A stretch of DNA of 61,345 nt, from positions 1 to 61,345 of the forward strand of contig JAAVBO010000009.1 in NCBI GenBank assembly GCA_014803575.1, in the 5' to 3' direction. Every line of letters starts with the position of its first letter. The first letter of the stretch is position 1. Positions 33,858 through 57,011 of the stretch are shown here, in pieces. A program made the translations under genes and the position numbers. Under the pieces are notes generated by a model. The model did not search any database, was not told the DNA's origin, and was given only the letters and a program-made list of their open reading frames with translations. This DNA comes from a bacterium. GTDB lineage: Bacteria; Pseudomonadota; Alphaproteobacteria; Rs-D84; CACZYB01.

Positions 33858-33898
33858 ATTAGCTAATAAAACCAAACAAAATTCAACTGCTATATAAT
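33858..33898 (+). promoter_or_regulatory. ATTAGCTAAT-N25-TATAAT promoter-like element
   Basis: Palindrome at 33858..33867 and TATAAT at 33893..33898. Points into the non-coding hub. Lies 53 nt from the ParB-like gene start. Confidence 0.5.
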
Positions 33899-34020
33899 AT
33901 AACCGACAATAACTGCTAGAACAACAACATATTCTACGCGTAATATAGCAGGTTGTACGGCAACAACGGCGCCGTTCCGTGTCACGCTACACAATTCATT
34001 TGTAAATCTAAAAGTGTTAT

Positions 34021-34049
34021 TTGACATTCTAAAGGCTACAAATTATAAA
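34021..34049 (+). promoter_or_regulatory. TTGACA-17-TATAAA promoter-like element (rightward)
   Basis: TTGACA at 34021..34026 and TATAAA at 34044..34049. Located in the divergent hub. Confidence 0.45.
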
Positions 34050-34070
34050 TGTACAAAAAATATTTTTGAA
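34042..34070 (-). promoter_or_regulatory. TTCAAA-17-TATAAT promoter-like element (leftward, towards ParB-like/terL)
   Basis: On the minus strand, TTCAAA is at 34070..34065 and TATAAT at 34047..34042. Its -10 overlaps the -10 of the rightward element. Confidence 0.4.
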
Positions 34071-34143
34071 TTTCATTTTTCAATTTGAAAAATAAAAATT
34101 TTTTTGTACCAAAGTTATAAAATTGAGCTTTTCAAAATAAAAA

Positions 34144-34177
34144 TTGTACATTCACAATTTCATGTGTAAAGTAAAAT
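34144..34177 (+). promoter_or_regulatory. 13-mer TTGTACATTCACA with a downstream TAAAAT (15-nt spacer)
   Basis: 13-mer at 34144..34156 and TAAAAT at 34172..34177. The spacing is suboptimal. Confidence 0.3.
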
Positions 34178-34219
34178 ATTGCATGTTTAACGTTTTATGT
34201 GCCGTTCTTGAAGCTGTCC

Positions 34220-34254
34220 GTGTCGTTGTCCATGAATTTTGTGTCGCTGTCCAT
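34220..34254. repeat. direct repeat GTGTCG(T/C)TGTCCAT x2, 21 nt apart
   Basis: Copies at 34220..34233 and 34241..34254, in a GC-richer island of the hub. The 12-bp palindrome AACGGCGCCGTT lies nearby at 33965..33976. Confidence 0.6.
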
Positions 34255-34378
34255 TATTAGTTGTGCATGGCACATGAATATTGGCCCGGGGTTTTTGGGA
34301 AACGCGCTAGAAAAATTCTACCTGTGTTTTTAAATGTATTCTATTATATAAAATTATTTAATAATATAAATAAAAAAA

Positions 34379-34695
34379 TTAAATATATTTAATAAATAAT
34401 TAAATATAAAAAATTATTTATTAAATATATAAAATAAAAAATTAAATATATTTAATAAATAATTAAATAAAATTATTAAATATATTTAATAAATAATTAA
34501 ATATAAAAAATTATTTATTAAATATAAAAAATTATTTATTAAATATATTTAATAAATAATTAAATAAAATTATTAAATATATTTAATAAATAATTAAATA
34601 TAAAAAATTATTTATTAAATATATTTAATAAATAAAATATTAAATATATAAAACTATTAAATATATTTAATAAATAAAACATTAAATATATTTAA
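34379..34695. repeat. array of eight copies of the 14-bp perfect palindrome TTAAATATATTTAA
   Basis: Copies start at 34379, 34442, 34476, 34539, 34573, 34615, 34657 and 34682. Most are followed by TAAATAA. A 97-bp higher-order unit is repeated (34442 to 34539 and 34476 to 34573). Confidence 0.9.
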
Positions 34696-34990
34696 TAGAA
34701 CAAGGGATGGAGTACAATGGACCTTGCAGCTTAACTTTTAGTCCGTGACACTTTGTACATGTGAGGAGACCACGCCCCACGGTAATTGGATGGAGTGACT
34801 TGTGTTTGAGTTCCAAAGAAAGAAATGTGGTTAGTGTTCATGCTTTACGTTTCATTTCCATACCTCATTTTACCTCAATTTGGCTTCACGTTCTTGAACA
34901 GTGGAAAATGATTCAGGAATTATGGTTCAAGATTCACTGGTCAGGGTACGTGGAATAGTTCTAACTAATAGTTACACAGGAGGTGTTACT

Positions 34991-35284
34991 TTGAATATCA
35001 CTGTAGAAATGGTCAAGAAACTTGACGAAATTAACCAGAAACATAAGGATTGGTGCACGCCAAATATGGAATGTTACACTGATGAGGATTTTGATAACTA
35101 TGAAGAAGTTATTGAAGAGAACAAGCAGCATTACCTGGATGACCTTGTCGACTTTATGAACGATGAGGCTCCAGAAGACATTAAGGATGTTCTTTGGCGC
35201 CCTTGTGGTGAAAAAGAAACTGAAGAGTGGGAGGAGTTTGTCTTTAAGGGAACTCCTTGGGAAGGCGAAACTTATAGAAAGTAA
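34991..35284 (+). CDS. early protein, GTP(W/F/Y)-motif family member, 97 aa
   Basis: AGGAGG 7 nt upstream of TTG at 34991 (the alternative ATG is at 35009). C-terminal EEWEEFVFKGTPWEG. FMNDEAPEDIKDVL matches 12150..12770. Confidence 0.55.
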   Translation: MNITVEMVKKLDEINQKHKDWCTPNMECYTDEDFDNYEEVIEENKQHYLDDLVDFMNDEAPEDIKDVLWRPCGEKETEEWEEFVFKGTPWEGETYRK

Positions 35285-35306
35285 AAACAAATAGAGAGGT
35301 AAAACA

Positions 35307-35738
35307 ATGAATGAAGGAAAGGATTACAGAAACTCAGTTGGCTATTTCCGTGACCCGTTCACGGGAAAAGAATTTGATGATGCAATTATCAAGGCGCCGC
35401 GAGTGCCTGGCCACAAGTTTGCGCATATCTATGCGTCTGACGGAAAAACCGTGATACCTATCTCTTCACGGTTCTGGACCAGAGAAGAGAAAGACGCATA
35501 CTACGCGAGCCGCAAGAATGGCTCTTCAGGTTCTGGTCCACAGAAGACTGAAGAATTGAGGCAGTCTCTGAATGAACTCAGAGAGTATTTGGAATCTGTC
35601 TTGCCGAACGACAAGAAGGTTCGAGGTATGATAGACAAGATGATGCCTGCAGACCCTGCAATTGCAAGGATGCAGAAACAAGTCGAAAGCATGTCGGAAG
35701 AACAAAAACAGTTATTCTTAGCAATGCTTAATAAATAG
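35307..35738 (+). CDS. hypothetical early protein, 143 aa (paralogue of 42637..43140)
   Basis: GAGAGG RBS. Shares YRNSVGYFRDP...RFWTREEKDAYYASRKNG with YHNSTGYWKDP...KLWNANEKQCYKEYRSGG. Confidence 0.65.
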   Translation: MNEGKDYRNSVGYFRDPFTGKEFDDAIIKAPRVPGHKFAHIYASDGKTVIPISSRFWTREEKDAYYASRKNGSSGSGPQKTEELRQSLNELREYLESVLPNDKKVRGMIDKMMPADPAIARMQKQVESMSEEQKQLFLAMLNK

Positions 35739-35751
35739 GAGGAATAAAGAA

Positions 35752-36072
35752 ATGCACGAAAATGAGGTTGAGGACATGTTAAGCGCATACTATAACGCAG
35801 AAAATAGTGGCGAAGAAAATGAAGTAACTAAGAAAGCGTATGAATCGCTTCAAAGCATGTTAAAGGATGATTTTAACGAGATATTCGTTGAGTTCATTGA
35901 TTTGGGCCGCAAGCTGAGCAAGCTGATGTTCAAGTATGGCGGAGACGTTGTTAGTATGAGCAAGCAGTACTCGCTAATGATTAACCTGTTGAGGTATACC
36001 AATCCAAACGCATACGATTATTGGATTAACGATGGAGAGGTTGAAGTTCCTGAAGAATGTAAGGGAATGTAA
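35752..36072 (+). CDS. hypothetical early protein, 106 aa
   Basis: AGGAGGA RBS. Confidence 0.6.
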   Translation: MHENEVEDMLSAYYNAENSGEENEVTKKAYESLQSMLKDDFNEIFVEFIDLGRKLSKLMFKYGGDVVSMSKQYSLMINLLRYTNPNAYDYWINDGEVEVPEECKGM

Positions 36073-36097
36073 TAAATAAGTGTAAGAGATAAAAGAA

Positions 36098-36208
36098 ATG
36101 AAAGAGCTGACTAAATGGGATAATAACCCAAGAATGCTACATGTTTGGGACGAAGACTTTTCTATGAATGTAATTAGAAAAGTCATATACGTTGCTGAAG
36201 TTGAATAA
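36098..36208 (+). pseudogene. 36-codon truncated paralogue of the 46123/46578 family
   Basis: MKELTKWDNNPRMLHVWDEDFSMNVIRKVIYVAEVE aligns with the N-terminus of 46578..46982 (MKEIIEWDNNPRLMWVWDNEYKSKIKAKVIYIQD), then stops. Confidence 0.4.
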
Positions 36209-36233
36209 AGTAAAATAAGATGAGGAGGTTGAA

Positions 36234-36602
36234 ATGAGTATAAGCATATCATTCAAGGTTACACCTAGAATGGTGAAAGACTTGGCAAGCATAAACGCTA
36301 GATTTGCTGACAAGATTGGCTCTACGATAAGGGAGTACATTACGGATACAAAGAATTTGAGTGATGCAGAGCAGAGGTATCTAAACGAGATTGTCGAGTT
36401 TGAAAACGAGTATGTTCCAATGGAATATGAAAACATTATGTTCTCTCTAAACGACAACGGGCTAGGGCAATACGTGACGAGAGCATGGGAGAACTGGGTG
36501 TTTGCTGGCACGCCGTTCAGGCTGCAGCATCTTAAGAGCTACAAAGTATCATATGAGCTAGACACAGATGATTTTGTGGCTTTGAATATGGTAGAAGAAT
36601 AA
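36234..36602 (+). CDS. early protein, GTP(W/F/Y)-motif family member, 122 aa
   Basis: GAGGAGG RBS. Contains TRAWENWVFAGTPF. Confidence 0.65.
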   Translation: MSISISFKVTPRMVKDLASINARFADKIGSTIREYITDTKNLSDAEQRYLNEIVEFENEYVPMEYENIMFSLNDNGLGQYVTRAWENWVFAGTPFRLQHLKSYKVSYELDTDDFVALNMVEE

Positions 36603-36629
36603 ATTAAAATAATAGTGAGGTAAGAAAAA

Positions 36630-37259
36630 ATGGAAAACATGGAAAAGAATTTTAAAGAGATTATCGCTAAGCACATGAACGAGTACGGTCAGAAGTATAC
36701 GAACCATGACTTGTTGTTTAGAATCAAGAATGATTTTAGAAGCGTCAAGCTGTTCAGATGCTTTGGATACAAGCAAGAAGATAGAGAGAAAATCTTCGAG
36801 TATTACAGAGAGCTTACTGATTTTATAATGATTTATGCTCCAGATGGATGCTGTAGTGGTACGTGTGACGAAGATGCATGCTGGGAAGACGACTGGCCGT
36901 TCACGAGAGCTTGGGTGGATGCATGTTTGGACGGCACGCCGTTTGAAAGAGGCTTTGGACAGCGCTTGCTTGACGATATATTTTACAAGGGAGAGCATAG
37001 CAGTCCTATGAAAGACTCTTATGAGAATAAGATGAAGATGCTGCGTAAAAAATGGGGGCCTGAATCTGAAGGGTATAAGCCTGACATGTTTCTTAAAAAG
37101 CTTGTCGAGTTTTATTGGAAAGACATGCCGCATGACTTCAAGGTGCTAACAGATATGTACTTATTCAACGGTAAAATGAGCATTGACAGGTCAGAGAATG
37201 CATGGAAGAACTGGGTGTTTGGTGGAACTCCATGGGAAGACATAGACTTCGGGCACTGA
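36630..37259 (+). CDS. early protein, GTP(W/F/Y)-motif family member (two motif copies), 209 aa
   Basis: GTGAGG RBS. Contains TRAWVDACLDGTPF and ENAWKNWVFGGTPW. Confidence 0.65.
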   Translation: MENMEKNFKEIIAKHMNEYGQKYTNHDLLFRIKNDFRSVKLFRCFGYKQEDREKIFEYYRELTDFIMIYAPDGCCSGTCDEDACWEDDWPFTRAWVDACLDGTPFERGFGQRLLDDIFYKGEHSSPMKDSYENKMKMLRKKWGPESEGYKPDMFLKKLVEFYWKDMPHDFKVLTDMYLFNGKMSIDRSENAWKNWVFGGTPWEDIDFGH

Positions 37260-37330
37260 TATCATACAAATTACGCTATGCATAAAACAAAATGCATAGC
37301 GTAAAAGAGAAATGGAAGTGAGGAGGCAGC

Positions 37331-37597
37331 ATGGTCTACACTGAAAACATAGATACTGTATCTGAACTGATACAGTATCTGCAAGAGTCATGCCTCGACC
37401 GCGGATACGCGGCGACAATAGACTCTGATGCATTTGACTACTATATTGAGATTGGTAAGATGGAAGACTTTACTGTATGCTTTACTATAGAAGACTTGAT
37501 ATCACGGCTAAGCGAGTTAGACCCAGAATTAAATGCAAGTCTTAACATTATTGTCGATGAATCTATCAATATAATGGTTGAAAAAGAAGATTGGTAG
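37331..37597 (+). CDS. hypothetical early protein, 88 aa
   Basis: GAGGAGG RBS. Confidence 0.6.
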   Translation: MVYTENIDTVSELIQYLQESCLDRGYAATIDSDAFDYYIEIGKMEDFTVCFTIEDLISRLSELDPELNASLNIIVDESINIMVEKEDW

Positions 37598-37632
37598 CAG
37601 AAACGAATGTTTTTATCTTGTGGGAGGTAAAG

Positions 37633-37818
37633 ATGGAAGAGAAATACGACAAGCCATGGACTAGAAAAGAGTTGTCCATGCGTATTGGCTTCGGTGAGCT
37701 TGCAAAAGCAGTCATTGAGCAATGGAACAAAGACGGTCGTCCTGAAAGCGACAGGAAGCAGATTGAATACTGGTTCAAAGTTATTGAACAATCAAGAGAG
37801 AAGCATGCGACAAGATAA
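37633..37818 (+). CDS. hypothetical early protein, 61 aa
   Basis: GGGAGG 6 nt upstream of ATG at 37633. The earlier track start has no RBS. Confidence 0.5.
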   Translation: MEEKYDKPWTRKELSMRIGFGELAKAVIEQWNKDGRPESDRKQIEYWFKVIEQSREKHATR

Positions 37819-37864
37819 TAGCTGCTCTTAAAGGAAAGTATAACACATTAAGAGGTGATGAGTG

Positions 37865-38032
37865 ATGGAAGAGATACTAGTTGCGATGTTCGCTATATTC
37901 GGCGCAGCATTTGGATTCGGCGTGCTGCTTAACCCTTTCTTCTGGCAAGGGTTAAGGAACAGCAAGTACTGGGACGAGCGCAAGAAGAACGCTAGTAATA
38001 GCAGAGACTTAGCAGACCCAGATAAAATGTGA
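37865..38032 (+). CDS. small single-pass membrane protein, 55 aa
   Basis: GAGGTGATGAG upstream. MEEILVAMFAIFGAAFGFGVLLNPFFW is followed by a basic tail. Below the 60-aa cut-off of the ORF track. Confidence 0.45.
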   Translation: MEEILVAMFAIFGAAFGFGVLLNPFFWQGLRNSKYWDERKKNASNSRDLADPDKM

Positions 38033-38039
38033 GGTACAA

Positions 38040-38297
38040 ATGAACAAGCAATACATGCTAGCTATAATAAAAATACGTCTCAAGGACGTTGAGCGTAAAT
38101 ACAGAGCGTGCTTCGACACCAACGGCCCGAGCAAATCTAAGTCTGGAGCTACTGTAAACAGGAGCAGATGCATGAAAGAGATAAGGACACTGAGGCTGAT
38201 AGAGCATCTTATATTGAGATGCCCTGACACATTGACAATAGACAATGAAGAGCTGTGCAAAGCGTTCGACCAGTTGACAGAACCAGGGAGGAAATAA
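38040..38297 (+). CDS. hypothetical early protein, 85 aa
   Basis: GTGAGG RBS. Confidence 0.55.
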   Translation: MNKQYMLAIIKIRLKDVERKYRACFDTNGPSKSKSGATVNRSRCMKEIRTLRLIEHLILRCPDTLTIDNEELCKAFDQLTEPGRK

Positions 38298-38307
38298 AGG
38301 TAAAACT

Positions 38308-39247: not shown

Positions 39248-39257
39248 GGAGGATTAT

Positions 39258-39518: not shown

Positions 39519-39573
39519 AGCAAGTATATGAACAACAACAACACAAAGTGTGTAGCGTAATCTAACACATGCT

Positions 39574-39690
39574 TACTGTGAATATACAAAAAAATTTATT
39601 AGCTAATCAATTCTTAACTTTGGATTTAAAAAATTTTTTAAACTCAAGTTGAAAATTGAAATTGAAAATTAAAAATTGTATATTTACAGT
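39574..39690. repeat. inverted repeat pair flanking an AT-rich core
   Basis: ACTGTGAATATACAA (39574..39588) and its near-complement TTGTATATTTACAGT (39676..39690). A similar pair lies at 34044..34056 and 34144..34156. Confidence 0.7.
39598..39607. promoter_or_regulatory. eighth ATTAGCTAAT copy with no -10 at the standard distance
   Basis: Sits between two inverted 13-mer promoter-like elements (39577..39589 and 39676..39688). Confidence 0.4.
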
Positions 39691-39710: not shown

Positions 39711-39728
39711 GTTAAATGGAGGTTATAA

Positions 39729-39770: not shown

Positions 39771-39798
39771 CGGAATTTTGGCGGAATTTTTTATTGGT

Positions 39799-39887
39799 TT
39801 AGCTAAATTTATTCATTAAATTTAGTTAATTTATTCATTAAATTTAGTTAATTTATTCGCCGGTTTTAGCTATATTTATTAGCTAAT
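39799..39887. repeat. phased array of five TTAG(C/T)TA(A/T) boxes
   Basis: Boxes start at 39799, 39822, 39844, 39866 and 39879, giving spacings of 23, 22, 22 and 13 nt. The last is the core of ATTAGCTAAT. Confidence 0.75.
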
Positions 39888-39919
39888 TTATTAAATTATT
39901 ATAGTTTATGCTGTATAAT
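39878..39919 (+). promoter_or_regulatory. ATTAGCTAAT-N26-TATAAT promoter-like element
   Basis: Palindrome at 39878..39887 and TATAAT at 39914..39919. Upstream of 39973..40500. Confidence 0.6.
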
Positions 39920-39972
39920 TTCAACATAAACAAAATGAAAGCAAACGAAATATGTTTGCAAGGAGAAATATT

Positions 39973-40500
39973 ATGGAAAAAGTTAATGGAACAGTTGGCG
40001 CTGCAGGCATAACGCCTGTACAGGACAAAGTTAATGGAACAGTTGGCGCTGCAGGCATAACGCCTGTACAGGACAACGCACGGGTTGCAGAGAAAGCTGC
40101 TGAGTTGAAGGCGAAGAAAAGCGCTGCTGCAAAAGCATGGAAAGAGAGAAAGAACAACGAAGCTGCTGAACGAAAAAAGACTGCTGCTGAACTTATCAAG
40201 TATCTTGCTGACAAGAAGGTTCAGCTGCCTGAAACATTCAGCAAGCTCTTGAATGACATTGCTAATCCATCTAGCCGTTCAAGTGGAACTGGTTCGAGCC
40301 CATTGTTCGAAAAGCTCTTTGGCTCTGCTCCAAAGGTCGGAGACAAAGTTACGCTTCTTGAAGTGTTCCAGAAGTCTTACAAATCTAAGGCTGAAATCGA
40401 CAGGTATGTAAAGATTTGGGCAGAGAAAGGTACAGTTGTTACCTTCAAGCCTAAAGCTAACATGCTGGAGTCGACTTATGTTATTGAGAAAATAGCGTAG
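39973..40500 (+). CDS. Lys/Ala-rich protein with exact 16-aa tandem duplication, 175 aa
   Basis: AAGGAGA 6 nt upstream of ATG at 39973. KVNGTVGAAGITPVQD occurs twice. Has its own promoter region and its own terminator (40534..40572). Confidence 0.65.
   Translation: MEKVNGTVGAAGITPVQDKVNGTVGAAGITPVQDNARVAEKAAELKAKKSAAAKAWKERKNNEAAERKKTAAELIKYLADKKVQLPETFSKLLNDIANPSSRSSGTGSSPLFEKLFGSAPKVGDKVTLLEVFQKSYKSKAEIDRYVKIWAEKGTVVTFKPKANMLESTYVIEKIA
39979..40074 (+). repeat. perfect 48-bp tandem duplication inside a CDS
   Basis: 39979..40026 is identical to 40027..40074. Confidence 0.9.
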
Positions 40501-40533: not shown

Positions 40534-40572
40534 GTGGAGCTATTACTTAACTAGTAATAGCTCCACTTTTAT
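40534..40572 (+). terminator. rho-independent terminator
   Basis: GTGGAGCTATTAC pairs with GTAATAGCTCCAC in a 13-bp stem, followed by TTTTATTAT. Lies directly after 39973..40500. Confidence 0.8.
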
Positions 40573-40585: not shown

Positions 40586-40626
40586 ATTAGCTAATAACTG
40601 CATTTTTAATTGCTGCAGTGTAAAAT
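40586..40626 (+). promoter_or_regulatory. ATTAGCTAAT-N25-TAAAAT promoter-like element
   Basis: Palindrome at 40586..40595 and TAAAAT at 40621..40626. Lies just after terminator 40534..40572 and upstream of 40643. Confidence 0.6.
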
Positions 40627-40642: not shown

Positions 40643-41398
40643 ATGAAAGACAATGAGATAAGGCTTGTGCATCGTGAGGAAACGTTCAATGACCTAGCAG
40701 TGCGTGAGCTAGCTCGAGGACGCTCAGCTTGTATATGCAGGTTGCAGTTTGGGGCGTGCAAGAAAGCAGAGTGCAAGGCTTGCGAGATAAGCCGTAACTA
40801 TAGTACATGCTATAAAAACTTGAACGAGTACGATAGAGAGCGGCTAGTTACGTACGTGAGTGATTGCTATGTAGAAGACTCATTGACGCCGGAAAGATGG
40901 ATGAGCTACCGTAGTCTTAAGGTGCACTTGTTAAAGTGGATAGTTCTTATTTTCCTATGCTTGGCTTTTATATTCGTGCCGCTGGTTATGTTAGCGCCAG
41001 GAAATATGCCTGGTGACATGCCAAAATCTACTATAGAAGTTTCTGATAACACGCATAAGCGTATTGTTATAACAAAGAAGCTGGTTGATAAGAATATAAA
41101 AGATATAAATGGAGATGGTTCGGTTAACTGCCAGGACTATGCTATAATATTCAAGCTTATATGGGATGACGTGTTTCCTAACTATAAAAGTGACTGCATT
41201 ATAATAAGGAATAGGAGCGTGTTCATGCACCATTTATTTAATGGAGTGTATGATAGAAGTGACTTAGTATTTGTAGAGCCATGGGCTAGCGACCCATATA
41301 ATTATTTGATGTGTGATAATTGGAGCTATAAATGGAATCCAAGGTATAATATCTATGATGAGACAGAAATGTGGTTGGAGAAGGTGCAATATGAGTAA
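40643..41398 (+). CDS. Cys-rich membrane protein, 251 aa
   Basis: AGAGGA RBS. One TM helix (WIVLIFLCLAFIFVPLVMLA). Also has an EF-hand- or dockerin-like loop DINGDGSVNCQDY. Confidence 0.6.
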   Translation: MKDNEIRLVHREETFNDLAVRELARGRSACICRLQFGACKKAECKACEISRNYSTCYKNLNEYDRERLVTYVSDCYVEDSLTPERWMSYRSLKVHLLKWIVLIFLCLAFIFVPLVMLAPGNMPGDMPKSTIEVSDNTHKRIVITKKLVDKNIKDINGDGSVNCQDYAIIFKLIWDDVFPNYKSDCIIIRNRSVFMHHLFNGVYDRSDLVFVEPWASDPYNYLMCDNWSYKWNPRYNIYDETEMWLEKVQYE

Positions 41399-41618: not shown

Positions 41619-42206
41619 ATGATTAAGCTGAAGCCATTCATAAATACTGCTAGAGTGTGGGCTGAAAACAGCAGTTGCGCTAGGCTTAAGGTTGGCGCGT
41701 GTATAATAAACATGGAGACTAGGCGCTTGTTGAGCATAGGCTATAATGGAACGATTAGCGGCATGTACAATTGCAATAACATATTCGTTAAAAATGGTGA
41801 AGATTATTATGTATCTAAGGATATACTTAAATATATGGAAGTTGATTTGCCTTTTGAGCGTGACGGCTTTGCTCATATTGACAGGGATAACTGGCTGAGG
41901 CACCATCACTTGTTTAGCGATAAGCTTGAAGTGCATGCTGAGCAGAACGCTATATATAACTTGATTAAGACAGGCGCGTCTTATGATACAGATAACCTTG
42001 CTATTGTTTGCACGCATGCTCCTTGCAGGCAGTGCGCTAAAGCGATAGCTGCTTTAGGAATAAAGTACGTGTTCTATATAAATGAGTATGATAACAACGA
42101 AGAGATTGTAATGAAGTACTTTAACAGTGTAGGCGTTATATGCAGGCAAGTGCAAGATGACTGCGTGTATAATGAAGACGAGGAGGAGGATTTTGAGGAA
42201 GAGTAA
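41619..42206 (+). CDS. dCMP (deoxycytidylate) deaminase, 195 aa
   Basis: AAGGAGG RBS. Zinc-binding motifs VHAEQNAI and PCRQCAKAI of the CDA/dCMP deaminase family. Confidence 0.85.
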   Translation: MIKLKPFINTARVWAENSSCARLKVGACIINMETRRLLSIGYNGTISGMYNCNNIFVKNGEDYYVSKDILKYMEVDLPFERDGFAHIDRDNWLRHHHLFSDKLEVHAEQNAIYNLIKTGASYDTDNLAIVCTHAPCRQCAKAIAALGIKYVFYINEYDNNEEIVMKYFNSVGVICRQVQDDCVYNEDEEEDFEEE

Positions 42207-42513: not shown

Positions 42514-42650
42514 CGATAAAGCAATGCCCTAAATGTACGTACCCAATGAGGCGCGTTTATTCAGACAAGTATTATAATGTAGTATGCACTAACAAAAATT
42601 GCATGTTCTCTTATAAAAGGAAAAGGAGAGATGCTTATGCCAAACGATGA
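42510..42650 (+). CDS. zinc-ribbon mini-protein, 46 aa
   Basis: ATGA overlap with the previous stop. CPKC...(16 aa)...CTNKNC followed by a basic tail. Confidence 0.4.
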   Translation: MTIKQCPKCTYPMRRVYSDKYYNVVCTNKNCMFSYKRKRRDAYAKR

Positions 42651-43140
42651 GTATCATAATAGCACGGGATATTGGAAAGACCCGTGCAATGACAGAGAAC
42701 TTGCTGTGGAAGAGCCGCGCGTAGTTACATGCAAGTCTGGCGAGCCGTTCACATGGCCGATGATAGCTCTTGCTGATGGTAATGTAGTTAAGCTTAACTC
42801 TAAGCTATGGAACGCAAATGAGAAGCAATGCTATAAGGAGTATAGGAGCGGAGGTAAGAGCAAAAATGCAGATACAAAACAAGATAAGCCTGTTAAAAAC
42901 AAAAATGAAAATAGTATTGTTAATGACGCTAGCCCAAAGAGCTTAGTCAAGTATGACCCGGAGTCTGTGTCTGTTGAAGGGACTTTAGAGACTATAGCTA
43001 AGTGTGACAAGCTATATGGAGTGAGCATTATAGCTGGAATGACTTATGTGCTATGCGGTTCGCATAGTTCTAATACAGTGCATAGTATACCTCGCTCTCT
43101 GATGCCAGATTCAGAGTTTGCTAGGCTTACGGAGACTTAA
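42637..43140 (+). CDS. hypothetical protein, 167 aa (paralogue of 35307..35738)
   Basis: AAGGAGAG lies 7 nt upstream of ATG at 42637 and 1 nt upstream of ATG at 42631. See 35307..35738 for the shared motifs. Confidence 0.6.
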   Translation: MPNDEYHNSTGYWKDPCNDRELAVEEPRVVTCKSGEPFTWPMIALADGNVVKLNSKLWNANEKQCYKEYRSGGKSKNADTKQDKPVKNKNENSIVNDASPKSLVKYDPESVSVEGTLETIAKCDKLYGVSIIAGMTYVLCGSHSSNTVHSIPRSLMPDSEFARLTET

Positions 43141-43297: not shown

Positions 43298-45204
43298 TGC
43301 CGTCAGCTACTGACCATTGCTGTACCTGCTTTTACTATGACAGGGATAAGTGTAACGAAGATAAAGATCATTGGTGCAACTTGCTTGATACGTTTGTAGG
43401 CATGTTTAAGATATGCCCTGGCTGGAAGCAGAGGGAGTATTCAGCGGAAGAGATTGCGGAAAGGGAGAGGCTGCTTGCTTTGTATAATGTTAATAGTGTT
43501 AACAATAGTAATGTTAAAAATACAAGTAAAATTAGCAAGCAGAAAACTAAGCTAGTTGAAAGGGAATTAGAGCGAGATGATACTGTAAAATTGTTCAAGC
43601 ATCAGGTGGAAGCTAGGGAGAAGTTTAAATGCTTAGATGAGATAGCTTTGTTCTTTGAGATGGGTTGCGGAAAGACTCTTACAAGCATGATGATTATGTG
43701 CGATAAGTTCAAAGAGAAAAAGATAGATAGCTTGCTCATTGTAGCGCCTAATGACGTGCACAAGCAGTGGTTTGATGATTTGTGTGATGATGATAGCGTC
43801 TTGTCTAAAGCTATAGCTCAAGAAGAAGTTGAGTGTGATGGTCAGATTATAGGCGGACGTGGAGGACAGAAAGAGCTGTACGAGTTTGACTATGATAATA
43901 ATAAGCTGCACATTGTTTGCGTTAACATTGACACGTTCTCGACGCCGAGCAAGTGGAAGCCTATAGTTGAGTGGGCTAATGAGCATAACACTGCTATAAT
44001 ACTTGATGAAGCTACAGTGATAAAGAATCATAAGAGCATGAGGAGTCAGAGAATGCTATATGAATTCAATGACGTCAAGAGGAGAGGCAGAAACACTATA
44101 CTTAGCTCTACAAAGAAGCATCCAGTAAGAGTTGTATTGACTGGAACTCCAGTAACTAATGGCCCAATAGATTTGTGGGCCATAATGGAGTTTGTTAGGC
44201 CTAACTATTTTAAGCGTAATTACTATAGCTTCACAAACTACTATGGCATGCACACGCAGCTGACTGCTCAAGATAGGGTTGTAAACGTGCTGCTTAACGA
44301 GAAGACATGGAGAGGCATAAAAAACTGTTATGACTTTGCAGAAGCACATTCTATCTTTGGCTGCTCTGAAGACACGTATCTTACTGTAATGCACCAAGAC
44401 CATTATTCAGGTCCTTACAAGCATGCTGACGAGCTGAAGATGTTGCTTGAGCCTAATGCTGTATTTGCTAAGTTGGTTGATTGTGCTGACATGCCTGCTG
44501 TCAATTACATAGTTCGCAATATATCTATGTCTAACGCACAAAAGGCTGCCTATAGTAGCATGAAGAAAGATATGCTTGCTGAATTTAATGAGCACGTTTC
44601 TTATGCTAAGAACAAGCTTGTAATGTCTATACGCTTGCAGCAAATATCTTCTGGATTTATTACAGGGCATAGAGAAGTAATGAATGAAGACGAGCCTATG
44701 TGGAGCGATGACGCTTATGATGTTATGCCTGATGAAGTTGTGTGGCTTGATGACACGAATCCTAAGCTTGAAGCGCTGCTGCGTGACATTGATGAGCTTG
44801 ATAAGCCCTTGCTTATATTTACTAGGTTCTCTGCTGAAGCTGCAAAGATATATGATAAAATAAAGGATAACTATAGCACTATGCTTTTCACTGGCTGGAA
44901 GACTACAGGAACTATAGAAGATTTTAAAGTAGGCAAGTATGATATAATAGTAGCTAATGTGAGCAAAATCGCTAGGGGATTTAACTTGCAATGCGCTCAT
45001 ACAACGCTATATTATAGCAATACGTTTAGCATGGAGATAAGGCAGCAGTCAGAATTCAGGACGTTCCGCATGGGCCAGCAGCATCCTTGCACTTATATAG
45101 ACTATATATCTTGTGACATTGATAAGACTATTATTGAAGCTCTTCGCTTGAAGAAAAGCCTGCTAGACTATATAAGGGACAGGGACGCCGGCAGCATTTT
45201 TTAA
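43294..45204 (+). CDS. SNF2-family (SF2) helicase / DNA-dependent ATPase, 636 aa
   Basis: Motif I FEMGCGKTLT. Motif II AIILDEATVIKN. C-terminal RGFNLQ...TLYYSNTFSMEIRQQSEFRTFRMGQ. Cys-rich N-terminal extension. Confidence 0.8.
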   Translation: MMPSATDHCCTCFYYDRDKCNEDKDHWCNLLDTFVGMFKICPGWKQREYSAEEIAERERLLALYNVNSVNNSNVKNTSKISKQKTKLVERELERDDTVKLFKHQVEAREKFKCLDEIALFFEMGCGKTLTSMMIMCDKFKEKKIDSLLIVAPNDVHKQWFDDLCDDDSVLSKAIAQEEVECDGQIIGGRGGQKELYEFDYDNNKLHIVCVNIDTFSTPSKWKPIVEWANEHNTAIILDEATVIKNHKSMRSQRMLYEFNDVKRRGRNTILSSTKKHPVRVVLTGTPVTNGPIDLWAIMEFVRPNYFKRNYYSFTNYYGMHTQLTAQDRVVNVLLNEKTWRGIKNCYDFAEAHSIFGCSEDTYLTVMHQDHYSGPYKHADELKMLLEPNAVFAKLVDCADMPAVNYIVRNISMSNAQKAAYSSMKKDMLAEFNEHVSYAKNKLVMSIRLQQISSGFITGHREVMNEDEPMWSDDAYDVMPDEVVWLDDTNPKLEALLRDIDELDKPLLIFTRFSAEAAKIYDKIKDNYSTMLFTGWKTTGTIEDFKVGKYDIIVANVSKIARGFNLQCAHTTLYYSNTFSMEIRQQSEFRTFRMGQQHPCTYIDYISCDIDKTIIEALRLKKSLLDYIRDRDAGSIF

Positions 45205-45267
45205 TAAATTATTTAATTTATTTCTATATTATATAGAATAATTATATAAATAATTTAATTTAATTCG

Positions 45268-45308
45268 ATTAGCTAATAGTTATTATATTATTTTAAATAT
45301 TATAAAAT
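45268..45308 (+). promoter_or_regulatory. ATTAGCTAAT-N25-TAAAAT promoter-like element
   Basis: Palindrome at 45268..45277 and TAAAAT at 45303..45308. Upstream of 45391. Confidence 0.55.
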
Positions 45309-45390: not shown

Positions 45391-45705
45391 ATGGGTAGAG
45401 GAAGTGATTTAATGGGCACAATGATGTGCATGAAGTTGCTAGGCAATGATTCTAGTGACATGGACCTTGGCAAGATGTTTTTGTTGCAGCAGATGTCAGA
45501 TGGCGAGCCGCTGCAGATTACAGACGTCGTCAAGTCTAAGATTATAAGCAAGCTAAACTTAGACGCTGATAATGATGACCTGCCTTTGGACAAGCTTATG
45601 TTGCTGCAGATGCTCAATAATAGCGATGAACTGGATATGGCGCAATTGATTCAAATGAAGATGCTTGAAAAGATGTTCGAAGAAGATAGCAGTAAAAAGG
45701 AATAG
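45391..45705 (+). CDS. acidic Met/Leu-rich protein, 104 aa
   Basis: GGAGG 9 nt upstream of ATG at 45391. Repeated (F/M)LLQ(Q)M segments. Confidence 0.55.
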   Translation: MGRGSDLMGTMMCMKLLGNDSSDMDLGKMFLLQQMSDGEPLQITDVVKSKIISKLNLDADNDDLPLDKLMLLQMLNNSDELDMAQLIQMKMLEKMFEEDSSKKE

Positions 45706-47596: not shown

Positions 47597-47783
47597 TGCA
47601 GCGAAATACAGGAATAACAAGACAGGCAACGTATATTATGTATATACAAAATATGCTATAGAAAGTACTAATGGTCGTGAGGACATACCGTATACTATAT
47701 ATACCAATGCTGAAAAGAACAAAGTGTTTGTCCGTGAGACTAAAGAGTTTAACAACAAGTTCACGCTGTGTGAGCGTGAATAA
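47586..47783 (+). CDS. small protein, DUF1653-like (tentative), 65 aa
   Basis: TGGAGG RBS. Contains KYRNNKTGNVYYVYTKYAIESTNGREDIPYTIY...VFVRETKEF. Confidence 0.45.
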   Translation: MNFNAAKYRNNKTGNVYYVYTKYAIESTNGREDIPYTIYTNAEKNKVFVRETKEFNNKFTLCERE

Positions 47784-47786
47784 ATT

Positions 47787-47827
47787 ATTAGCTAATAATT
47801 AAAAATTATATATTTACAGTTTATAAT
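47787..47827 (+). promoter_or_regulatory. ATTAGCTAAT-N25-TATAAT promoter-like element
   Basis: Palindrome at 47787..47796 and TATAAT at 47822..47827. The ATG of 47834 lies 6 nt downstream. Confidence 0.6.
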
Positions 47828-47833: not shown

Positions 47834-48100
47834 ATGAATAAAAATACTGATAGACAAATGCTTAGGCAAATGGCTGAAGAGATAATTAGCCCTATATTTG
47901 AGAGTGTTGTAGATATGTATTGCGATATGGTGTGCATTATATATGACAACTTGAATAGTGTTCCCGAGGCTGAGAGAAACAAAGTCATTAAGATGGTTAT
48001 AGAAAACCATTCGCAAGCGCTGTTAAACGGATTTAAAGCAGGCATTCCGCCTGACTTTGAAGATAAATTGAAGGAGGCTGTAAATGGCGGACAGCTATGA
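47834..48100 (+). CDS. hypothetical protein, 88 aa (possibly leaderless)
   Basis: No SD. The ATG lies 6 nt after the TATAAT of promoter 47787..47827. Confidence 0.5.
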   Translation: MNKNTDRQMLRQMAEEIISPIFESVVDMYCDMVCIIYDNLNSVPEAERNKVIKMVIENHSQALLNGFKAGIPPDFEDKLKEAVNGGQL

Positions 48101-52438: not shown

Positions 52439-52440
52439 TT

Positions 52441-52481
52441 ATTAGCTAATAATATAATTTTAATTATATTATTAGTATAAT
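52441..52481 (+). promoter_or_regulatory. ATTAGCTAAT-N25-TATAAT promoter-like element
   Basis: Palindrome at 52441..52450 and TATAAT at 52476..52481. Upstream of 52551. Confidence 0.6.
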
Positions 52482-52550
52482 TATATCATATTCGTATGAA
52501 TATGAAGCGTTATTTATTTGTGGCTGTTGAGTCAGTCACTAGGAGTCATT

Positions 52551-53267
52551 ATGACAAGAGAAGATGTTAATGGCTTGGACTTTTTGGAAGACCAAGCAGG
52601 CGTTGGGCTGGAGAACATTACAGCCAACGAACAAGCTATGCCGTACCTTACAATGGTGCAGCCAGATGGAACAGCAGCAGCTGATGGCGCTGAGCCAGGA
52701 ACATGGCGCAACACAGCTACTAATGAAGAGTATGGCAATGTTGTTACCGTAGTTCCGGTAGCGTTCAAGACTATTTGGAACGAACGCGAGGGAACAGCTC
52801 CATTCAGAACAGTCGGGCGGTATGAGCCTAATTCAATCAACGTGAACGTGCAGCAGCCAAAAGGCGGAAAGGGCTATCCAAAAATGATTAACCCTGAAAC
52901 AGGCAATGAGGTTCAAGAGCTGTACATTTATGCAGTGATACTGCCTGACCATCCTGAAGCTGGAGTGCTGTACTTTAATCCTACAGTGTCTTCAATGACT
53001 ACTTGCAAGTCTTGGAATACGCAGCTCAAGTCGCAGTTGCTTCCAAACGGAAAGCAAGCTCCTATATTCGCTTACTCATGGAATCTTGCAGCGGACCTTG
53101 TCGACAATCCGCAGAAGAAAGGCGCGCAGATGGCTAAGTTTGTGAAAGTTGAGCGCAACGCTGTTATTGACAAGGAGCTGTTCACAACATTCGTTAAGCC
53201 GCAAATTTCTACAATCCAAAAGACAGTGCTTAGCATCACGCAAGACAACAGCGACTTGAGCGAATAG
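52551..53267 (+). CDS. hypothetical replication-module protein, 238 aa
   Basis: AGGAG 6 nt upstream of ATG at 52551. Followed by terminator 53275..53304. Confidence 0.6.
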   Translation: MTREDVNGLDFLEDQAGVGLENITANEQAMPYLTMVQPDGTAAADGAEPGTWRNTATNEEYGNVVTVVPVAFKTIWNEREGTAPFRTVGRYEPNSINVNVQQPKGGKGYPKMINPETGNEVQELYIYAVILPDHPEAGVLYFNPTVSSMTTCKSWNTQLKSQLLPNGKQAPIFAYSWNLAADLVDNPQKKGAQMAKFVKVERNAVIDKELFTTFVKPQISTIQKTVLSITQDNSDLSE

Positions 53268-53274
53268 CTTTCAT

Positions 53275-53304
53275 AGCCGGCATGTAATAGTGCCGGCTTA
53301 TTTT
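53275..53304 (+). terminator. rho-independent terminator
   Basis: AGCCGGCA-tgtaatag-TGCCGGCT followed by TATTTT. Confidence 0.7.
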
Positions 53305-53317
53305 ACAAGGAGTTTTT

Positions 53318-53644
53318 ATGAGCGCAGGATTAAACATAAACAGCATGGCGGTAAAGAACGTAGGGATAAAGCATGACGACGGCAAGAACAGGCTTGACTT
53401 AGTTGAGCCAAGCTTTATTGAAGGAGTTGGCGAGGTGCTTACTTTTGGAGCGCAAAAGTATGGCCCGGACTCTTGGCAGAATGTAGAAGATGGTGTTGAC
53501 AGGTACTATGCTGCCGCGTTGCGGCATTTGCTTGCTTATCGTAAAGGCGAGAAGATGGACCCAGAATCTGGAAAGAGCCACCTGTATCATGTCGCGTGTA
53601 ACATGATGTTCTTAGCGTATTGGGAGGAAAGCAATGGGCAATAA
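53318..53644 (+). CDS. dATP/dGTP pyrophosphohydrolase-like (DUF5664 / MazG-like) protein, 108 aa
   Basis: KHDDGKNRLDLVEP...VLTFGAQKYGPDSWQN...RYYAAALRHLLAYRKGEKMDPESGKSHLYHVACNMMFL matches the conserved blocks of this phage family as I recall them. Confidence 0.65.
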   Translation: MSAGLNINSMAVKNVGIKHDDGKNRLDLVEPSFIEGVGEVLTFGAQKYGPDSWQNVEDGVDRYYAAALRHLLAYRKGEKMDPESGKSHLYHVACNMMFLAYWEESNGQ

Positions 53645-54521
53645 CACAAGCGTGCTGAACATATATGGCGACTATCGTGATATTGACATAAACTATAACA
53701 TGACGTCTCAGGACTACTTTGTGCACATGCTTAGGTTTAGCCATGTAGTTGACATAGTTAAAGGCAAAAACATATTCGATATAGGCTGCGGAAAATATAC
53801 TAACCTGCTCAAGGCGCTGTGCATGATGGAGCGCGGCCCTGACTATAGGTTTTATATAGGCACTGATTATAACAAATGCAAGAAATGGCGCGAAGACTAT
53901 GCAGCTATATGGGACAAAACTGTTTTGCTAGATGAGCTTGACTTCACTGATGAGGACGACTTTGGCTTTATAATGGACAGCTTGGTGCAGGCGTTTGAAG
54001 GAGAGCCTTTTACAATCACATGCTTTGAAGTGCTAGAGCACATGGACTTCGAGATGCAGAACAAGTTCTTGTACAACTTGAGCAGGATACTGCATTATCC
54101 GAAGCTGAACGTAGAGTGCTGTCTATTCTCAACTCCAAACTTCAACGGCTATCCAGCTAAAAACCATATAAGCGAACTGAGCTGGAGGCTGCTTGAAGAG
54201 ATGTTCGATAGGTATGGTATTATTATAGCGCAAGCTCAAGGCTTGTCCGCTTGGAAGAAGTATCATAAGCAAGAATACCTTGCTCCTGGCACAAATCCTC
54301 CTGAATACGCAAAGCTTCTGCCTGTGCCGTTACAAAAAATGGTATGGGGCGCTGCGCTGCCGCGCAAGTACAGCAACAATATATTATATAATTTGATGGC
54401 TGATTTAAATGAGCTGAAGAGCTATGACGAATATAAGAAGCTAGGCTCTTATTCGTGGGGAGAATTTAGGCAAGGCGGCAGCTCTGCGGCTATATGCGAC
54501 AATCCGAATAACTTTAAGTGA
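53634..54521 (+). CDS. class I SAM-dependent methyltransferase, 295 aa
   Basis: Motif I IFDIGCGKYTN. Acidic post-I IGTDYN. ITCFEVLEHM. No DPPY or PCQ DNA-methyltransferase motifs seen. Confidence 0.55.
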   Translation: MGNNTSVLNIYGDYRDIDINYNMTSQDYFVHMLRFSHVVDIVKGKNIFDIGCGKYTNLLKALCMMERGPDYRFYIGTDYNKCKKWREDYAAIWDKTVLLDELDFTDEDDFGFIMDSLVQAFEGEPFTITCFEVLEHMDFEMQNKFLYNLSRILHYPKLNVECCLFSTPNFNGYPAKNHISELSWRLLEEMFDRYGIIIAQAQGLSAWKKYHKQEYLAPGTNPPEYAKLLPVPLQKMVWGAALPRKYSNNILYNLMADLNELKSYDEYKKLGSYSWGEFRQGGSSAAICDNPNNFK

Positions 54522-54528
54522 GGTTTAT

Positions 54529-54912
54529 ATGGCAGACTTGAATAGCTTTTCCTTTACAGGAAGATGCTCTAAAGATGCTGTTGTCAAGAAGGTTGGCAAC
54601 AACGTGTTGATGGAAGTTGATGTAGCTAACAATATCGGGTACGGTAATTACGCTACAACAAACTGGCTGAAAGTAAAAATGTGGGGCGAGCGCTGCTACA
54701 ATATTGCAGAAATCTTTAAGAAAGGAACAGTTGTAGCAGGGCAAGGCGAGCTTACGACTAACGAATGGACAGGTAATGATGGGTCTAAGCATGTAGACCT
54801 CGTTGTTACAGTGTTCAACTTGCAAGTTATAAGCAGCAAGTGCAAAGGCTGCTCTGATGAGCAGCATGAAAAGAAAGAAGAGGACAGCGAGCAAGGCGAG
54901 CTTCCATTCTAA
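54529..54912 (+). CDS. ssb: single-stranded DNA-binding protein, 127 aa
   Basis: OB-fold-like NSFSFTGRCSKDAVVK...WLKVKMWGERC...GELTTNEWTGNDGSKH. Acidic tail ends in EQGELPF. Confidence 0.8.
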   Translation: MADLNSFSFTGRCSKDAVVKKVGNNVLMEVDVANNIGYGNYATTNWLKVKMWGERCYNIAEIFKKGTVVAGQGELTTNEWTGNDGSKHVDLVVTVFNLQVISSKCKGCSDEQHEKKEEDSEQGELPF

Positions 54913-54916
54913 ACTA

Positions 54917-54949
54917 ATGGAGCCTCTAACATGGGGCTCCATTTTTATT
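54917..54949 (+). terminator. rho-independent terminator after ssb
   Basis: ATGGAGCC-tctaacatgg-GGCTCCAT followed by TTTTTATT. Confidence 0.7.
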
Positions 54950-54956
54950 GCTAGCT

Positions 54957-56963
54957 ATGGAGGAAATAGTGAACAGGCTTATAGCAATGGACGTCGAGAC
55001 ATACGGCAATTATTTGTTTGATGATGACGCGCGAATACTATGTTGCGGAGCTTATGGCGATGGCGTAAGCAAGGTGTTTGATTTCGATGACCCTAACCAA
55101 GTCAAAGAATGCATGGACATAATGTCAAATCCTAATATAGATAAAATATATCATAACTGTATATATGACACTGCGTGGAAATATTGCAAGTATGGAATGG
55201 ACATCAAAGGCGTCGTTCATGACACGATGACAAGGGCGTCGCTGATTGACGAGTACCAGCCTTTAAACTTAGATGACTGCTGTAAGAGGCTAGGAGTCAA
55301 GGGAAAGAACAAGGCAGAGACTATTGAAGCGTGGTTTGATGACTGGCAGACAGCAATGAAAGGCTGCGCTAAAGGCTTCAAGAAAGGCTTGGTAGCAGAT
55401 AATGAAGTGTTTAACCCAGATGATGGGCAAAGCTACAGGCTGTCAGATGGCGAGCTAGAAGCTCTAGTGACAGACAAGTATAAAAAAACTGTATGGGATA
55501 ACGCTCTCACGCTTTGGAGAGACTGCAAGGAATTCAAAGAAAACATGATTAAGTACAACTTGCAGGACTGCATTGCTACGTACAATCTTTTCATGGCTCA
55601 AGAGAAGTACATGAAGCCGCTGCAGAAAGTTTACGAGCTGGAGTGCAAGTTGATACCTATACTGCTTAAAATGAAGAAGACAGGCATAAGGTTTGACAAG
55701 AAGCGCGCTGACGAGCTAATTGTAAAAGTGTCAGAGAAGCGTGAAAGTGTTGAGCGTAATCTAATAGATGTATACGGAGTCACTGGCGAAATGGTAAACA
55801 GCTCAAAGCAGCTTGGAGCCAGGCTAAATAGCATGGGAGTGTATAGCCCTGTGACAACTAAGACTGGAGCGCAGTCTTGGGGTGAGGGAGCTTTGGCCAG
55901 AATACACCACCCGGTTATTTCCTTGATAAACGAGTATAAGAACTATGACGCTATATTGAACAAGTTTTTGCTAGGCTCTTTGAGCAAGTCGATTGTCAAC
56001 GGGCGCATACATTGCACGTTCTTGCCAATGCTGCGTGAGGAAGGTGGCACAGTTACAGGAAGGTTCAGCTGCAGGGACCCTAACTTGCAGCAGATACCTG
56101 CAAGGAACAAAGGCCATGGCGAAGACTTTTCACAAGACATGAGGTCGCTATTCTTGCCAGAAGAAGGCATGATGATATCTGCTATGGACTACAGCCAGAT
56201 AGAAGCAGTGCTGCTCGGACATTTCGCTAAAGGTCCTCAAGCTGAGTGGTTCAGGGAGCGGCTGAGGGCTGGAGACGACTTGCACAACATTGTCATGGAG
56301 ATGACGCATATAACTTATCGGCCAATCGTAAAAACGTTCAATTATGGCTGCATTTATGGGATGGGCTGGAAGACTGCTATGGAGAAAAACTACGTGCTGT
56401 TTGAGAAGTTTGCTAAGGAGCAGGGCGTAGACATTGAGACGTTCACAAAAAACCTTTATGACAACTACCATAAGAAGTTTCCAGTGATAAGAGACACAAT
56501 GGCATGGTGCCAGAACTTAGCTAAAGTACAAGGGTATATAGACACTATGGGAGGCAGGCGACTGCACAAGCCTAAGCCGCAGTACGACCCTAGCACAGGA
56601 AAGATAAACGACTTCATTTACAAGATGCTGAACAAGCTTATACAAGGCACTGCAGCAGATATACTTAAGCTAGCTATAGTAAAGGCTGAAGAGGAAGGTC
56701 TGTACAACGTCTTGACTCTGCACTTGCTGGTGCATGACGAGCAAGTGACCAGCGTTCCGTTTAACAAGGAAGGAGTAGAGGCAGCAGTCAGGCTGCAGCA
56801 GATTATGGCTGAGAGCTTTAAGGAAGAGCTGCTTGTGCCGATTAAAGCGAGCTGTGAACTAGGCCCTAACTGGGGGTACTGGTCTGGCGACATATACAAG
56901 GAGATGCAAGCAGGCAACTTTGACAGCAAGTTCTTCTTGGCAGACTACAAGAACACGCATTAA
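54957..56963 (+). CDS. polA: family A DNA polymerase with 3'-5' exonuclease domain, 668 aa
   Basis: Exo I AMDVETYG. Motif A DYSQIEAVLLGHF. Motif B RPIVKTFNYGCIYGMG. Motif C LLVHDEQV. Start taken at ATG 54957 (the track TTG is at 54948). Confidence 0.9.
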   Translation: MEEIVNRLIAMDVETYGNYLFDDDARILCCGAYGDGVSKVFDFDDPNQVKECMDIMSNPNIDKIYHNCIYDTAWKYCKYGMDIKGVVHDTMTRASLIDEYQPLNLDDCCKRLGVKGKNKAETIEAWFDDWQTAMKGCAKGFKKGLVADNEVFNPDDGQSYRLSDGELEALVTDKYKKTVWDNALTLWRDCKEFKENMIKYNLQDCIATYNLFMAQEKYMKPLQKVYELECKLIPILLKMKKTGIRFDKKRADELIVKVSEKRESVERNLIDVYGVTGEMVNSSKQLGARLNSMGVYSPVTTKTGAQSWGEGALARIHHPVISLINEYKNYDAILNKFLLGSLSKSIVNGRIHCTFLPMLREEGGTVTGRFSCRDPNLQQIPARNKGHGEDFSQDMRSLFLPEEGMMISAMDYSQIEAVLLGHFAKGPQAEWFRERLRAGDDLHNIVMEMTHITYRPIVKTFNYGCIYGMGWKTAMEKNYVLFEKFAKEQGVDIETFTKNLYDNYHKKFPVIRDTMAWCQNLAKVQGYIDTMGGRRLHKPKPQYDPSTGKINDFIYKMLNKLIQGTAADILKLAIVKAEEEGLYNVLTLHLLVHDEQVTSVPFNKEGVEAAVRLQQIMAESFKEELLVPIKASCELGPNWGYWSGDIYKEMQAGNFDSKFFLADYKNTH

Positions 56964-56970
56964 AATAATT

Positions 56971-57011
56971 ATTAGCTAATGGTTATATATTATATAGCCG
57001 CACTGTATAAT
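56971..57011 (+). promoter_or_regulatory. ATTAGCTAAT-N25-TATAAT promoter-like element
   Basis: Palindrome at 56971..56980 and TATAAT at 57006..57011. Upstream of 57045. Confidence 0.6.

Follow-up and report, generated by a model that had tools for sequence, protein, structure and literature searches.

The window analyzed here (positions 1 to 61,345 of contig JAAVBO010000009.1) is the approximately 61-kb genome of an uncultured phage of the rumen. Eight exact copies of the palindrome ATTAGCTAAT (hereafter the box) lie in it, most of them at a fixed distance upstream of a -10 hexamer of the host type. As judged from sequence comparison, the box and the -10 hexamer together form a real, conserved and family-wide architecture of predicted promoters that have no -35 element. 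It is somewhat probable that a homodimer bound at the box replaces recognition of the -35 element, and the factor that reads the box is most likely encoded by the phage and co-evolving with its site, since the geometry of the promoter is constant among related phages and the palindrome changes.

The copies of ATTAGCTAAT begin at positions 33858, 39598, 39878, 40586, 45268, 47787, 52441 and 56971, exactly where the preliminary description of this DNA had placed them, and dinucleotide-preserving shuffles contain on average 0.23 copies (at most 3) as against the eight observed. When one mismatch is allowed, a single further site is gained (44949, in the coding DNA of the helicase gene; about 5 are expected by chance), so the sites are exact copies and not members of a degenerate family. 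Each box is located between open reading frames (ORFs), and TAWAAT (TATAAT or TAAAAT) follows after exactly 25 nt (N25) at the boxes at 33858, 40586, 45268, 47787, 52441 and 56971, and after 26 nt at the 39878 box. Because TAWAAT is found at only 5 of 944 other flank positions, the probability of at least six of eight boxes having it at one offset is about 6e-13. The palindrome extends to TTATTAGCTAATAA at three boxes (40586, 47787 and 52441), as had been described. The 8-bp core does occur in coding DNA as previously stated (56517 and 58814), and a third copy, intergenic and within TTTAGCTAAA at 39799, had been overlooked. The boxes and hexamers are as follows.

33858 to 33867, no strand: box ATTAGCTAAT, between the divergent late (minus-strand) and plus-strand operons
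33893 to 33898, plus strand: -10 hexamer TATAAT, N25 from the 33858 box
39598 to 39607, no strand: box ATTAGCTAAT without a hexamer at N25, inside a class III module
39878 to 39887, plus strand: box ATTAGCTAAT, ahead of gene 39973, at the box position that is best conserved across the family
39914 to 39919, plus strand: -10 hexamer TATAAT, 26 nt past the 39878 box
40586 to 40595, plus strand: box ATTAGCTAAT, directly after a terminator-like hairpin (40534-40566)
40621 to 40626, plus strand: -10 hexamer TAAAAT at N25; gene ATG at 40643
45268 to 45277, plus strand: box ATTAGCTAAT, downstream of the SNF2 helicase gene
45303 to 45308, plus strand: -10 hexamer TAAAAT at N25; gene ATG at 45391
47787 to 47796, plus strand: box ATTAGCTAAT, directly after a terminator-like hairpin (47760-47780)
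47822 to 47827, plus strand: -10 hexamer TATAAT at N25; ATG at 47834, 6 nt downstream, without a Shine-Dalgarno sequence
52441 to 52450, plus strand: box ATTAGCTAAT, upstream of a Pam3-gp34-like gene; the orthologous site in relatives has the clade's own box allele
52476 to 52481, plus strand: -10 hexamer TATAAT at N25; gene ATG at 52551
56971 to 56980, plus strand: box ATTAGCTAAT, just past the PolA stop codon (56963)
57006 to 57011, plus strand: -10 hexamer TATAAT at N25; gene ATG at 57045

As the preliminary description had it, each of the seven boxes that are followed by a hexamer heads a plus-strand block of genes (a predicted transcription unit), and the 33858 box is in addition common to the divergent late promoter of the minus strand. 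The units comprise replication, nucleotide-metabolism and small early genes, with 6-90 nt between the promoter and the start of the gene. The mRNA of the gene at 47834 is probably leaderless, because its ATG lies 6 nt past the -10 hexamer and is not preceded by a Shine-Dalgarno sequence. The -10 hexamers at these seven sites, TATAAT or TAAAAT, are those of sigma-70/sigma-A promoters, and a TTGACA-like hexamer 16-18 bp upstream of them is absent. In agreement with the earlier statement that the -35 region is not conserved, an alignment of 60 sites from the family contains no -35-like hexamer between the box and the -10 hexamer; it reveals partial preferences for T at -15, G at -14 (present in about a third of the sites) and G at -13, as well as an A-rich stretch just upstream of the box, and otherwise no information from the box to the -10 hexamer.

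The comparison with related phages, for which about 50 loci were recovered with the terminase and the primase as anchors, is the decisive evidence and the core result of this sequence-based study. The layout of 10-bp palindrome, N25 and -10 hexamer is kept in these relatives, which come from gut and rumen metagenomes (L173 from a sheep rumen sample, SRR873601), often at orthologous positions such as that upstream of the orthologue of gene 39973 and that after the primase/g51905 pair. The sequence of the palindrome, in contrast, differs by clade while the N25 spacing stays identical, and the following alleles are found (L numbers denote loci).

Type A, ATTAGCTAAT with N25: the window, L004, L005, L007, L029, L033, L154-157, L163-165, L170 and L181
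Type B, TTGATCAA: L017, L021 and L177, a contig of a metagenome-assembled genome (MAG)
Type C, TTCAATTGAA: L018, L022, L024, L159-161 and L171-173
TTTAGCTAAW: L028, L030 and L158
ATTAATTAAT: L025, L032 and L162
TTTAATTAAA: L011 and L168

Exact sites number 3-8 per genome in the family; among the type-A loci, six with N25 and a -10 hexamer are present in L156 and four in L157. When hexamers matching TATAAT in at least 5 of 6 positions were scored in oriented box contexts across the family, the offset histogram peaked at exactly N25 (27 of 92 type-A contexts and 12 of 32 type-C contexts, with 0-11 at other offsets). The box type does not follow the phylogeny of the backbone: the primase of the type-B locus L177 is 75% identical to that of the window, some type-A phages have primases of 64-66% identity, and the A2/A4 clade of type-A phages has an X1-like backbone. 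Because the allele swaps are mosaic relative to the backbone, they suggest that regulatory specificity has been exchanged or diversified in these phages, as in the immunity regions of lambdoid phages. Rigid geometry, perfect dyads and allele swaps together point to a dimeric, site-specific protein that co-evolves with the box. The 175-aa protein of gene 39973 is always encoded after a box promoter across the family; in the window, an in-frame 48-bp tandem repeat at 39975-40076 doubles VNGTVGAAGITPVQD at its N-terminus.

In the mechanism that we propose, ATTAGCTAAT would be the binding site of a sequence-specific homodimer whose helical position is fixed. For a start site about 7 nt past the hexamer, the box would extend from -47 to -38, with its centre at -42.5. 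The bound dimer would substitute for the -35 element and would recruit or stabilize the host RNA polymerase at the sigma-A-type -10 hexamer, and its action would drive the seven plus-strand transcription units. The late promoter, where the box lies 3-4 nt upstream of the -35 element, and the paired boxes of the AT-rich modules described below are probable further sites of action of this protein. The start positions, activation rather than repression and the phage origin of the factor are what we infer from the sequences. The preliminary description had proposed a class of middle promoters; the first promoter of the plus strand, at 33858, is itself one of this class. It had offered either a dimeric factor near -42.5 or a non-canonical sigma factor. 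The palindrome, the rigid spacing and the clade-specific exchange of the box sequence speak for the former, although the protein itself did not emerge from the ORF scans; the latter is unlikely in view of the perfect dyad, the sigma-A-type TATAAT and the lack of a sigma gene.

Canonical promoters are found elsewhere in the same genome. TTTACA-N17-TATAAT occurs on the minus strand at 13611-13583, 19840-19812 and 31311-31283, and a similar late promoter adjoins the first box.

33825 to 33853, minus strand: late promoter TTTACA-N17-TAATGT, with its -35 element at 33853-33848, its -10 element at 33830-33825 and TGn before the -10 element

This promoter leads to the ParB-like gene (start 33799) and the terminase. 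Because the late promoters carry a -35 element, the box promoters without one constitute a separate class. On the minus strand, the 33858 box lies 4 nt upstream of the -35 element of the late promoter. In relatives, the box is located 3-4 nt upstream of TGTACA or TTTACA, which is followed by N17 and TATAAT ahead of the ParB-like gene and the terminase; the type-C relatives have no box at the late promoter. The three TTTACA-N17-TATAAT promoters inside the structural module (13583-13611, 19812-19840 and 31283-31311, minus strand) are each preceded by TAYA and an A/T-rich tract.

The 39598 box indeed has no hexamer, as had been reported. It is, however, not a defective member of the promoter set, since it belongs to a different conserved module that contains paired boxes in relatives.

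39577 to 39688, no strand: class III module, with inverted arms TGTGAATATACA and TGTATATTTACA around AT-rich DNA

In this module, inverted TGTAYATTYAYA arms flank an AT-rich stretch of about 90 bp in which GAAAAT/TTTTC is abundant. The module of relatives harbors two boxes at a distance of 60-61 bp from each other, with 9-11 nt between each box and an arm (3167/3227 in L005, 1485/1545 in L007, 4682/4742 and 11988/12048 in L029, and 1518/1579 in L017); TAYATT-like sequences follow 10-11 nt downstream of these paired boxes. Where a type-B phage has the paired-box module, the boxes are TTGATCAA in place of the type-A box, and therefore one factor would read all classes of site. A second, box-less copy of the module is present in the window at 34044-34156. 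The arms resemble the extended -35 element of the late promoters, but poor -10 sequences follow them, and the module may function as two divergent promoters, as an origin, or in both ways. An assignment of TGTAYATTCACA in the arms as DnaA boxes was dropped, the same word being the extended -35 element (TATATTTACA) of consensus late promoters. Tandemly repeated AT-rich DNA (periods of about 21-22 and 97 bp; 34346-34697, 39798-39900 and 45204-45265) adjoins the AT-rich modules and the 45268 box. Between the module and the late promoter, at about 33925-33965 on the minus strand, lies a non-coding element, GTTGTTGG..AACCTGCTATT, which occupies the same position in L001-L029 and is kept in all clades whatever their box type, with AGTTCCTTCTATATAA just downstream in most relatives; its function could be that of a leader, of a small RNA or of a packaging signal.

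For the protein that reads the box, the following ORFs were considered.

38040 to 38297, plus strand: g38040, an 85-aa early protein; low-confidence candidate for the factor
37633 to 37818, plus strand: g37633, a 61-aa early protein; second low-confidence candidate
19852 to 28017, minus strand: a 2721-aa ORF in the virion module

The two small early proteins are kept across all clades. The AlphaFold2 model of g38040 (predicted local distance difference test score, pLDDT, of 90) is a helical hairpin with a short helix, and that of g37633 (pLDDT 77) has three helices. A search of 1.84 billion representatives for the g38040 family returned 167 clusters at 50% identity, all of them stand-alone proteins of 80-100 aa, with no extra Pfam domain in the longer ones. 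In g38040 the basic central segment varies by clade (AAVNRSR in A, NASQRSR in B and AKEIRTH in C). Neither g39973 nor the ParB-like protein covaries with box type, and the latter has no recognizable helix-turn-helix (HTH). Clustering for type-specific ORFs was swamped by spurious ORFs. Among the approximately 75 ORFs there is no Mor-family Pfam match at E<=0.05; no Crp/Fnr protein (by Pfam) or cI-like protein is encoded in the window, and no MotA or AsiA match was found by Pfam in the phage. A KorA homologue was not found in the window or its relatives (the best phmmer hit, to a membrane-like ORF, had an E value of 0.12, and hhalign probabilities were below 1%). The 2721-aa ORF as a virion RNA polymerase is without support, for it has no family match and no DxDGD motif. 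The idea that abutting half-sites exclude an HTH dimer was withdrawn, since KorA reads TTTAGCTAAA.

Several of these results weigh against the proposed activator. None of the approximately 75 ORFs has an HTH, sigma, Mor, KorA or Ogr match in Pfam or PHROGs. The variation of g38040 is suggestive but does not match box type cleanly (it is inconsistent in L178 and L165), that of g37633 does not follow box type, and neither protein has a significant Foldseek or PDB match, by fold or by sequence. Furthermore, the first plus-strand promoter (33858) is itself of the box type, so that an activator made by the phage would need another route to its first expression, for which the best candidate is a TGTACATTCACA element at 34145 with a poor -10 sequence. 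Finally, TGn or G at -13/-14 is combined with A-rich upstream DNA in a subset of sites, so that some factor-free basal activity is possible. Since no ORF in the genome matches a known DNA-binding or sigma domain, a phage-encoded factor would belong to a so far unrecognized DNA-binding family, perhaps represented by g38040 or g37633; we put this forward only tentatively. If it is true, at least six natural, mutually orthogonal pairs of activator and box exist in one phage family, and they reprogram the host RNA polymerase at promoters without a -35 element, with the same geometry throughout.

The lack of a recognizable DNA-binding protein in the phage would be accounted for if the box were read by a dimeric regulator of the host that the phage has co-opted, the box alleles then reflecting different host species. 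Such a regulator would also be available at the first plus-strand promoter (33858), where the factor is already needed, and the position of the box resembles that of class II activators of hosts. We nonetheless regard a host regulator as unlikely, because phages of a single, closely related family that share their habitats have six alleles, mosaic with respect to the backbone, and because the sites are exact and number 3-8 per genome, unlike the degenerate spread typical of a host regulon. A scan of all IMG/VR for ATTAGCTAAT-N25-TAWAAT does not discriminate: the matches listed were almost only single per contig (one unassigned contig, L036, had two), and among them there was no enrichment in unrelated phages. 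It is also rather improbable that the box is the operator of a phage repressor that serves in shut-off, in autoregulation or as a carrier-state switch, at promoters that fire unaided by means of their -10 hexamer, a partial TGn and A-rich upstream DNA. Perfect short palindromes are typical of operators, and the 8-bp core is also that of TTTAGCTAAA, the site bound by the repressor KorA of plasmid RK2 (PMC2680271). The G at -14 in about a third of the sites, the abutment of the box on the -35 element of a consensus late promoter and the location of the paired boxes 10-11 nt upstream of TAYATT-like sequences are likewise compatible with repression. Repression, however, does not call for a distance to the -10 hexamer that varies by at most 1 bp among dozens of sites with six alleles. 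The box is clear of the -10 hexamer and the start site, the -35 element is missing precisely at the box promoters and present at others in the genome, and neither an integrase nor a cI-like gene was found.

Direct reading of box and hexamer by a phage-specific polymerase or sigma-like subunit, for example one delivered with the virion as the 2721-aa ORF, is very improbable. Promoter words that are exact and identical throughout a genome are typical of phage RNA polymerases, and a giant ORF without a recognizable family does lie in the virion module. The site, on the other hand, is a perfect dyad that acts in either orientation, and the downstream element is the TATAAT of the host, separated from the box by 25 unconserved bases; no sigma or RNA polymerase signature was detected in the phage, and the giant ORF has no Pfam, PHROG or PDB match by sequence and no DxDGD motif. 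A role of the box in DNA transactions other than transcription (origin, partition, packaging, nicking or a restriction-related function), with its proximity to promoters a coincidence, could be read from the paired boxes in AT-rich modules beside AT-rich tandem repeats, which are possible origins, and from the ParB-like gene that adjoins the 33858 box. The rigid N25 coupling to a -10 hexamer and a ParB-like protein that neither has a recognizable HTH nor covaries with box type make such a role extremely improbable.

Minus-strand structural genes, encoding the ParB-like protein, the large terminase, the portal, the 2721-aa ORF and a tail fibre, occupy bases 1-33,805, and plus-strand genes extend over 33.9-59.9 kb. 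The latter include about 12 small ORFan early genes and encode an SNF2 helicase, a D5/VapE-type primase, PolA, SSB, a dCMP deaminase, a dUTPase and a thymidylate-synthase-like protein. The host probably belongs to the Firmicutes (Clostridia), because strong AGGAGG ribosome-binding sites are present, a CHAP endolysin is encoded and a related contig (L177) was binned in a MAG of the Acutalibacteraceae. No cultured relative was found: megablast with 15 kb against phage records gave no match, and tblastn with the terminase gave only one weak match, to a Fusobacterium phage. No Rfam family and no tRNA was found in the window. The dCMP deaminase (41619-42206), a PF18909 protein (dATP/dGTP diphosphohydrolase N-domain; 53318-53644), its 295-aa neighbour (53634-54521), the dUTPase (58389-58811) and the weak thymidylate-synthase-like protein (58808-59524) form a gene set from which a modified base in the DNA of the phage may be suspected. 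The proteins encoded at 35307-35738 and 42637-43140 are paralogues with a common NSxGYxxDP...PRV motif and are present in most relatives.

To our knowledge, almost nothing has been established about the transcription programmes of uncultured gut and rumen phages. For an entire, abundant phage family, the box, N25 and the -10 hexamer provide a testable promoter grammar together with predicted transcription units, and the boxes form a natural set of specificity alleles, at least six in number, at fixed geometry. The factor, once found, could reveal a new small activator fold and could give orthogonal pairs of promoter and activator for Clostridia-type hosts.

In class II activation, as by CRP and FNR dimers or by lambda cI at PRM, the dimer is centred near -41.5/-42, adjoins or replaces the -35 element and is subject to strict helical phasing. 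The predicted dimer position in the present phages, near -42.5 and beside or in place of the -35 element, is similar, whereas the sites of CRP/FNR and cI are 14-22 bp long with spaced half-sites (by 4-6 bp for CRP/FNR), and those found here comprise 10-12 bp without a spacer. Unlike the dyad at about -42.5 described here, the MotA box of phage T4 is asymmetric and centred at about -30, and a monomer reads it jointly with an anti-sigma-region-4 protein. The proposed factor would nevertheless resemble T4 MotA/AsiA in replacing -35 recognition at a class of phage promoters that keeps the -10 element; in T4, likewise, a phage factor replaces recognition of the -35 element and the sigma-70 -10 element is kept (PMC2988021).

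Phage Mu offers a further parallel. Its middle promoter Pm depends absolutely on Mor (PMC4390567, PMC4287176), whose binding site is a pair of 5-bp inverted repeats with its centre at -43.5 (PMC4390567); the late promoters of Mu, activated by C, have a -10 element and no -35 element (PMC2582627). As with Mor and C, a polymerase of the host sigma-70 type would act here at a good -10 hexamer without a -35 element; the phage-encoded dimer is established for Mu, and its centre at -43.5 compares with -42.5 predicted here if the start lies 7 nt past the hexamer. The half-sites of Mu are spaced within a 16-bp element (PMC4390567), whereas the 5-bp half-sites abut in the present box. Further differences from Mu are the probable Firmicute host, the exact site that several promoters of a genome have in common, the six alleles across relatives and the absence of any detected protein of the Mor/C family.

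The closest counterpart of the box as a DNA word is the KorA operator OA of the IncP plasmid RK2, TTTAGCTAAA / GTTTAGCTAAAC (PMC2680271, PMC11790492). The window box and OA have the core TTAGCTAA in common, and the box of L028 (at 6529 and a second site) is GTTTAGCTAAAC, letter for letter that of OA. Because KorA binds OA, a small HTH dimer can read an abutting palindrome of this kind. The resemblance is one of the DNA word only: OA overlaps the -10 element and mediates repression, whereas the box lies 25 nt upstream of the -10 hexamer. On the proposed reading, the architecture belongs to a known general kind, that of activator-dependent promoters without a -35 element, and is unusual in its exact, abutting 10-bp dyad, its strict N25 spacing and its at least six specificity alleles.

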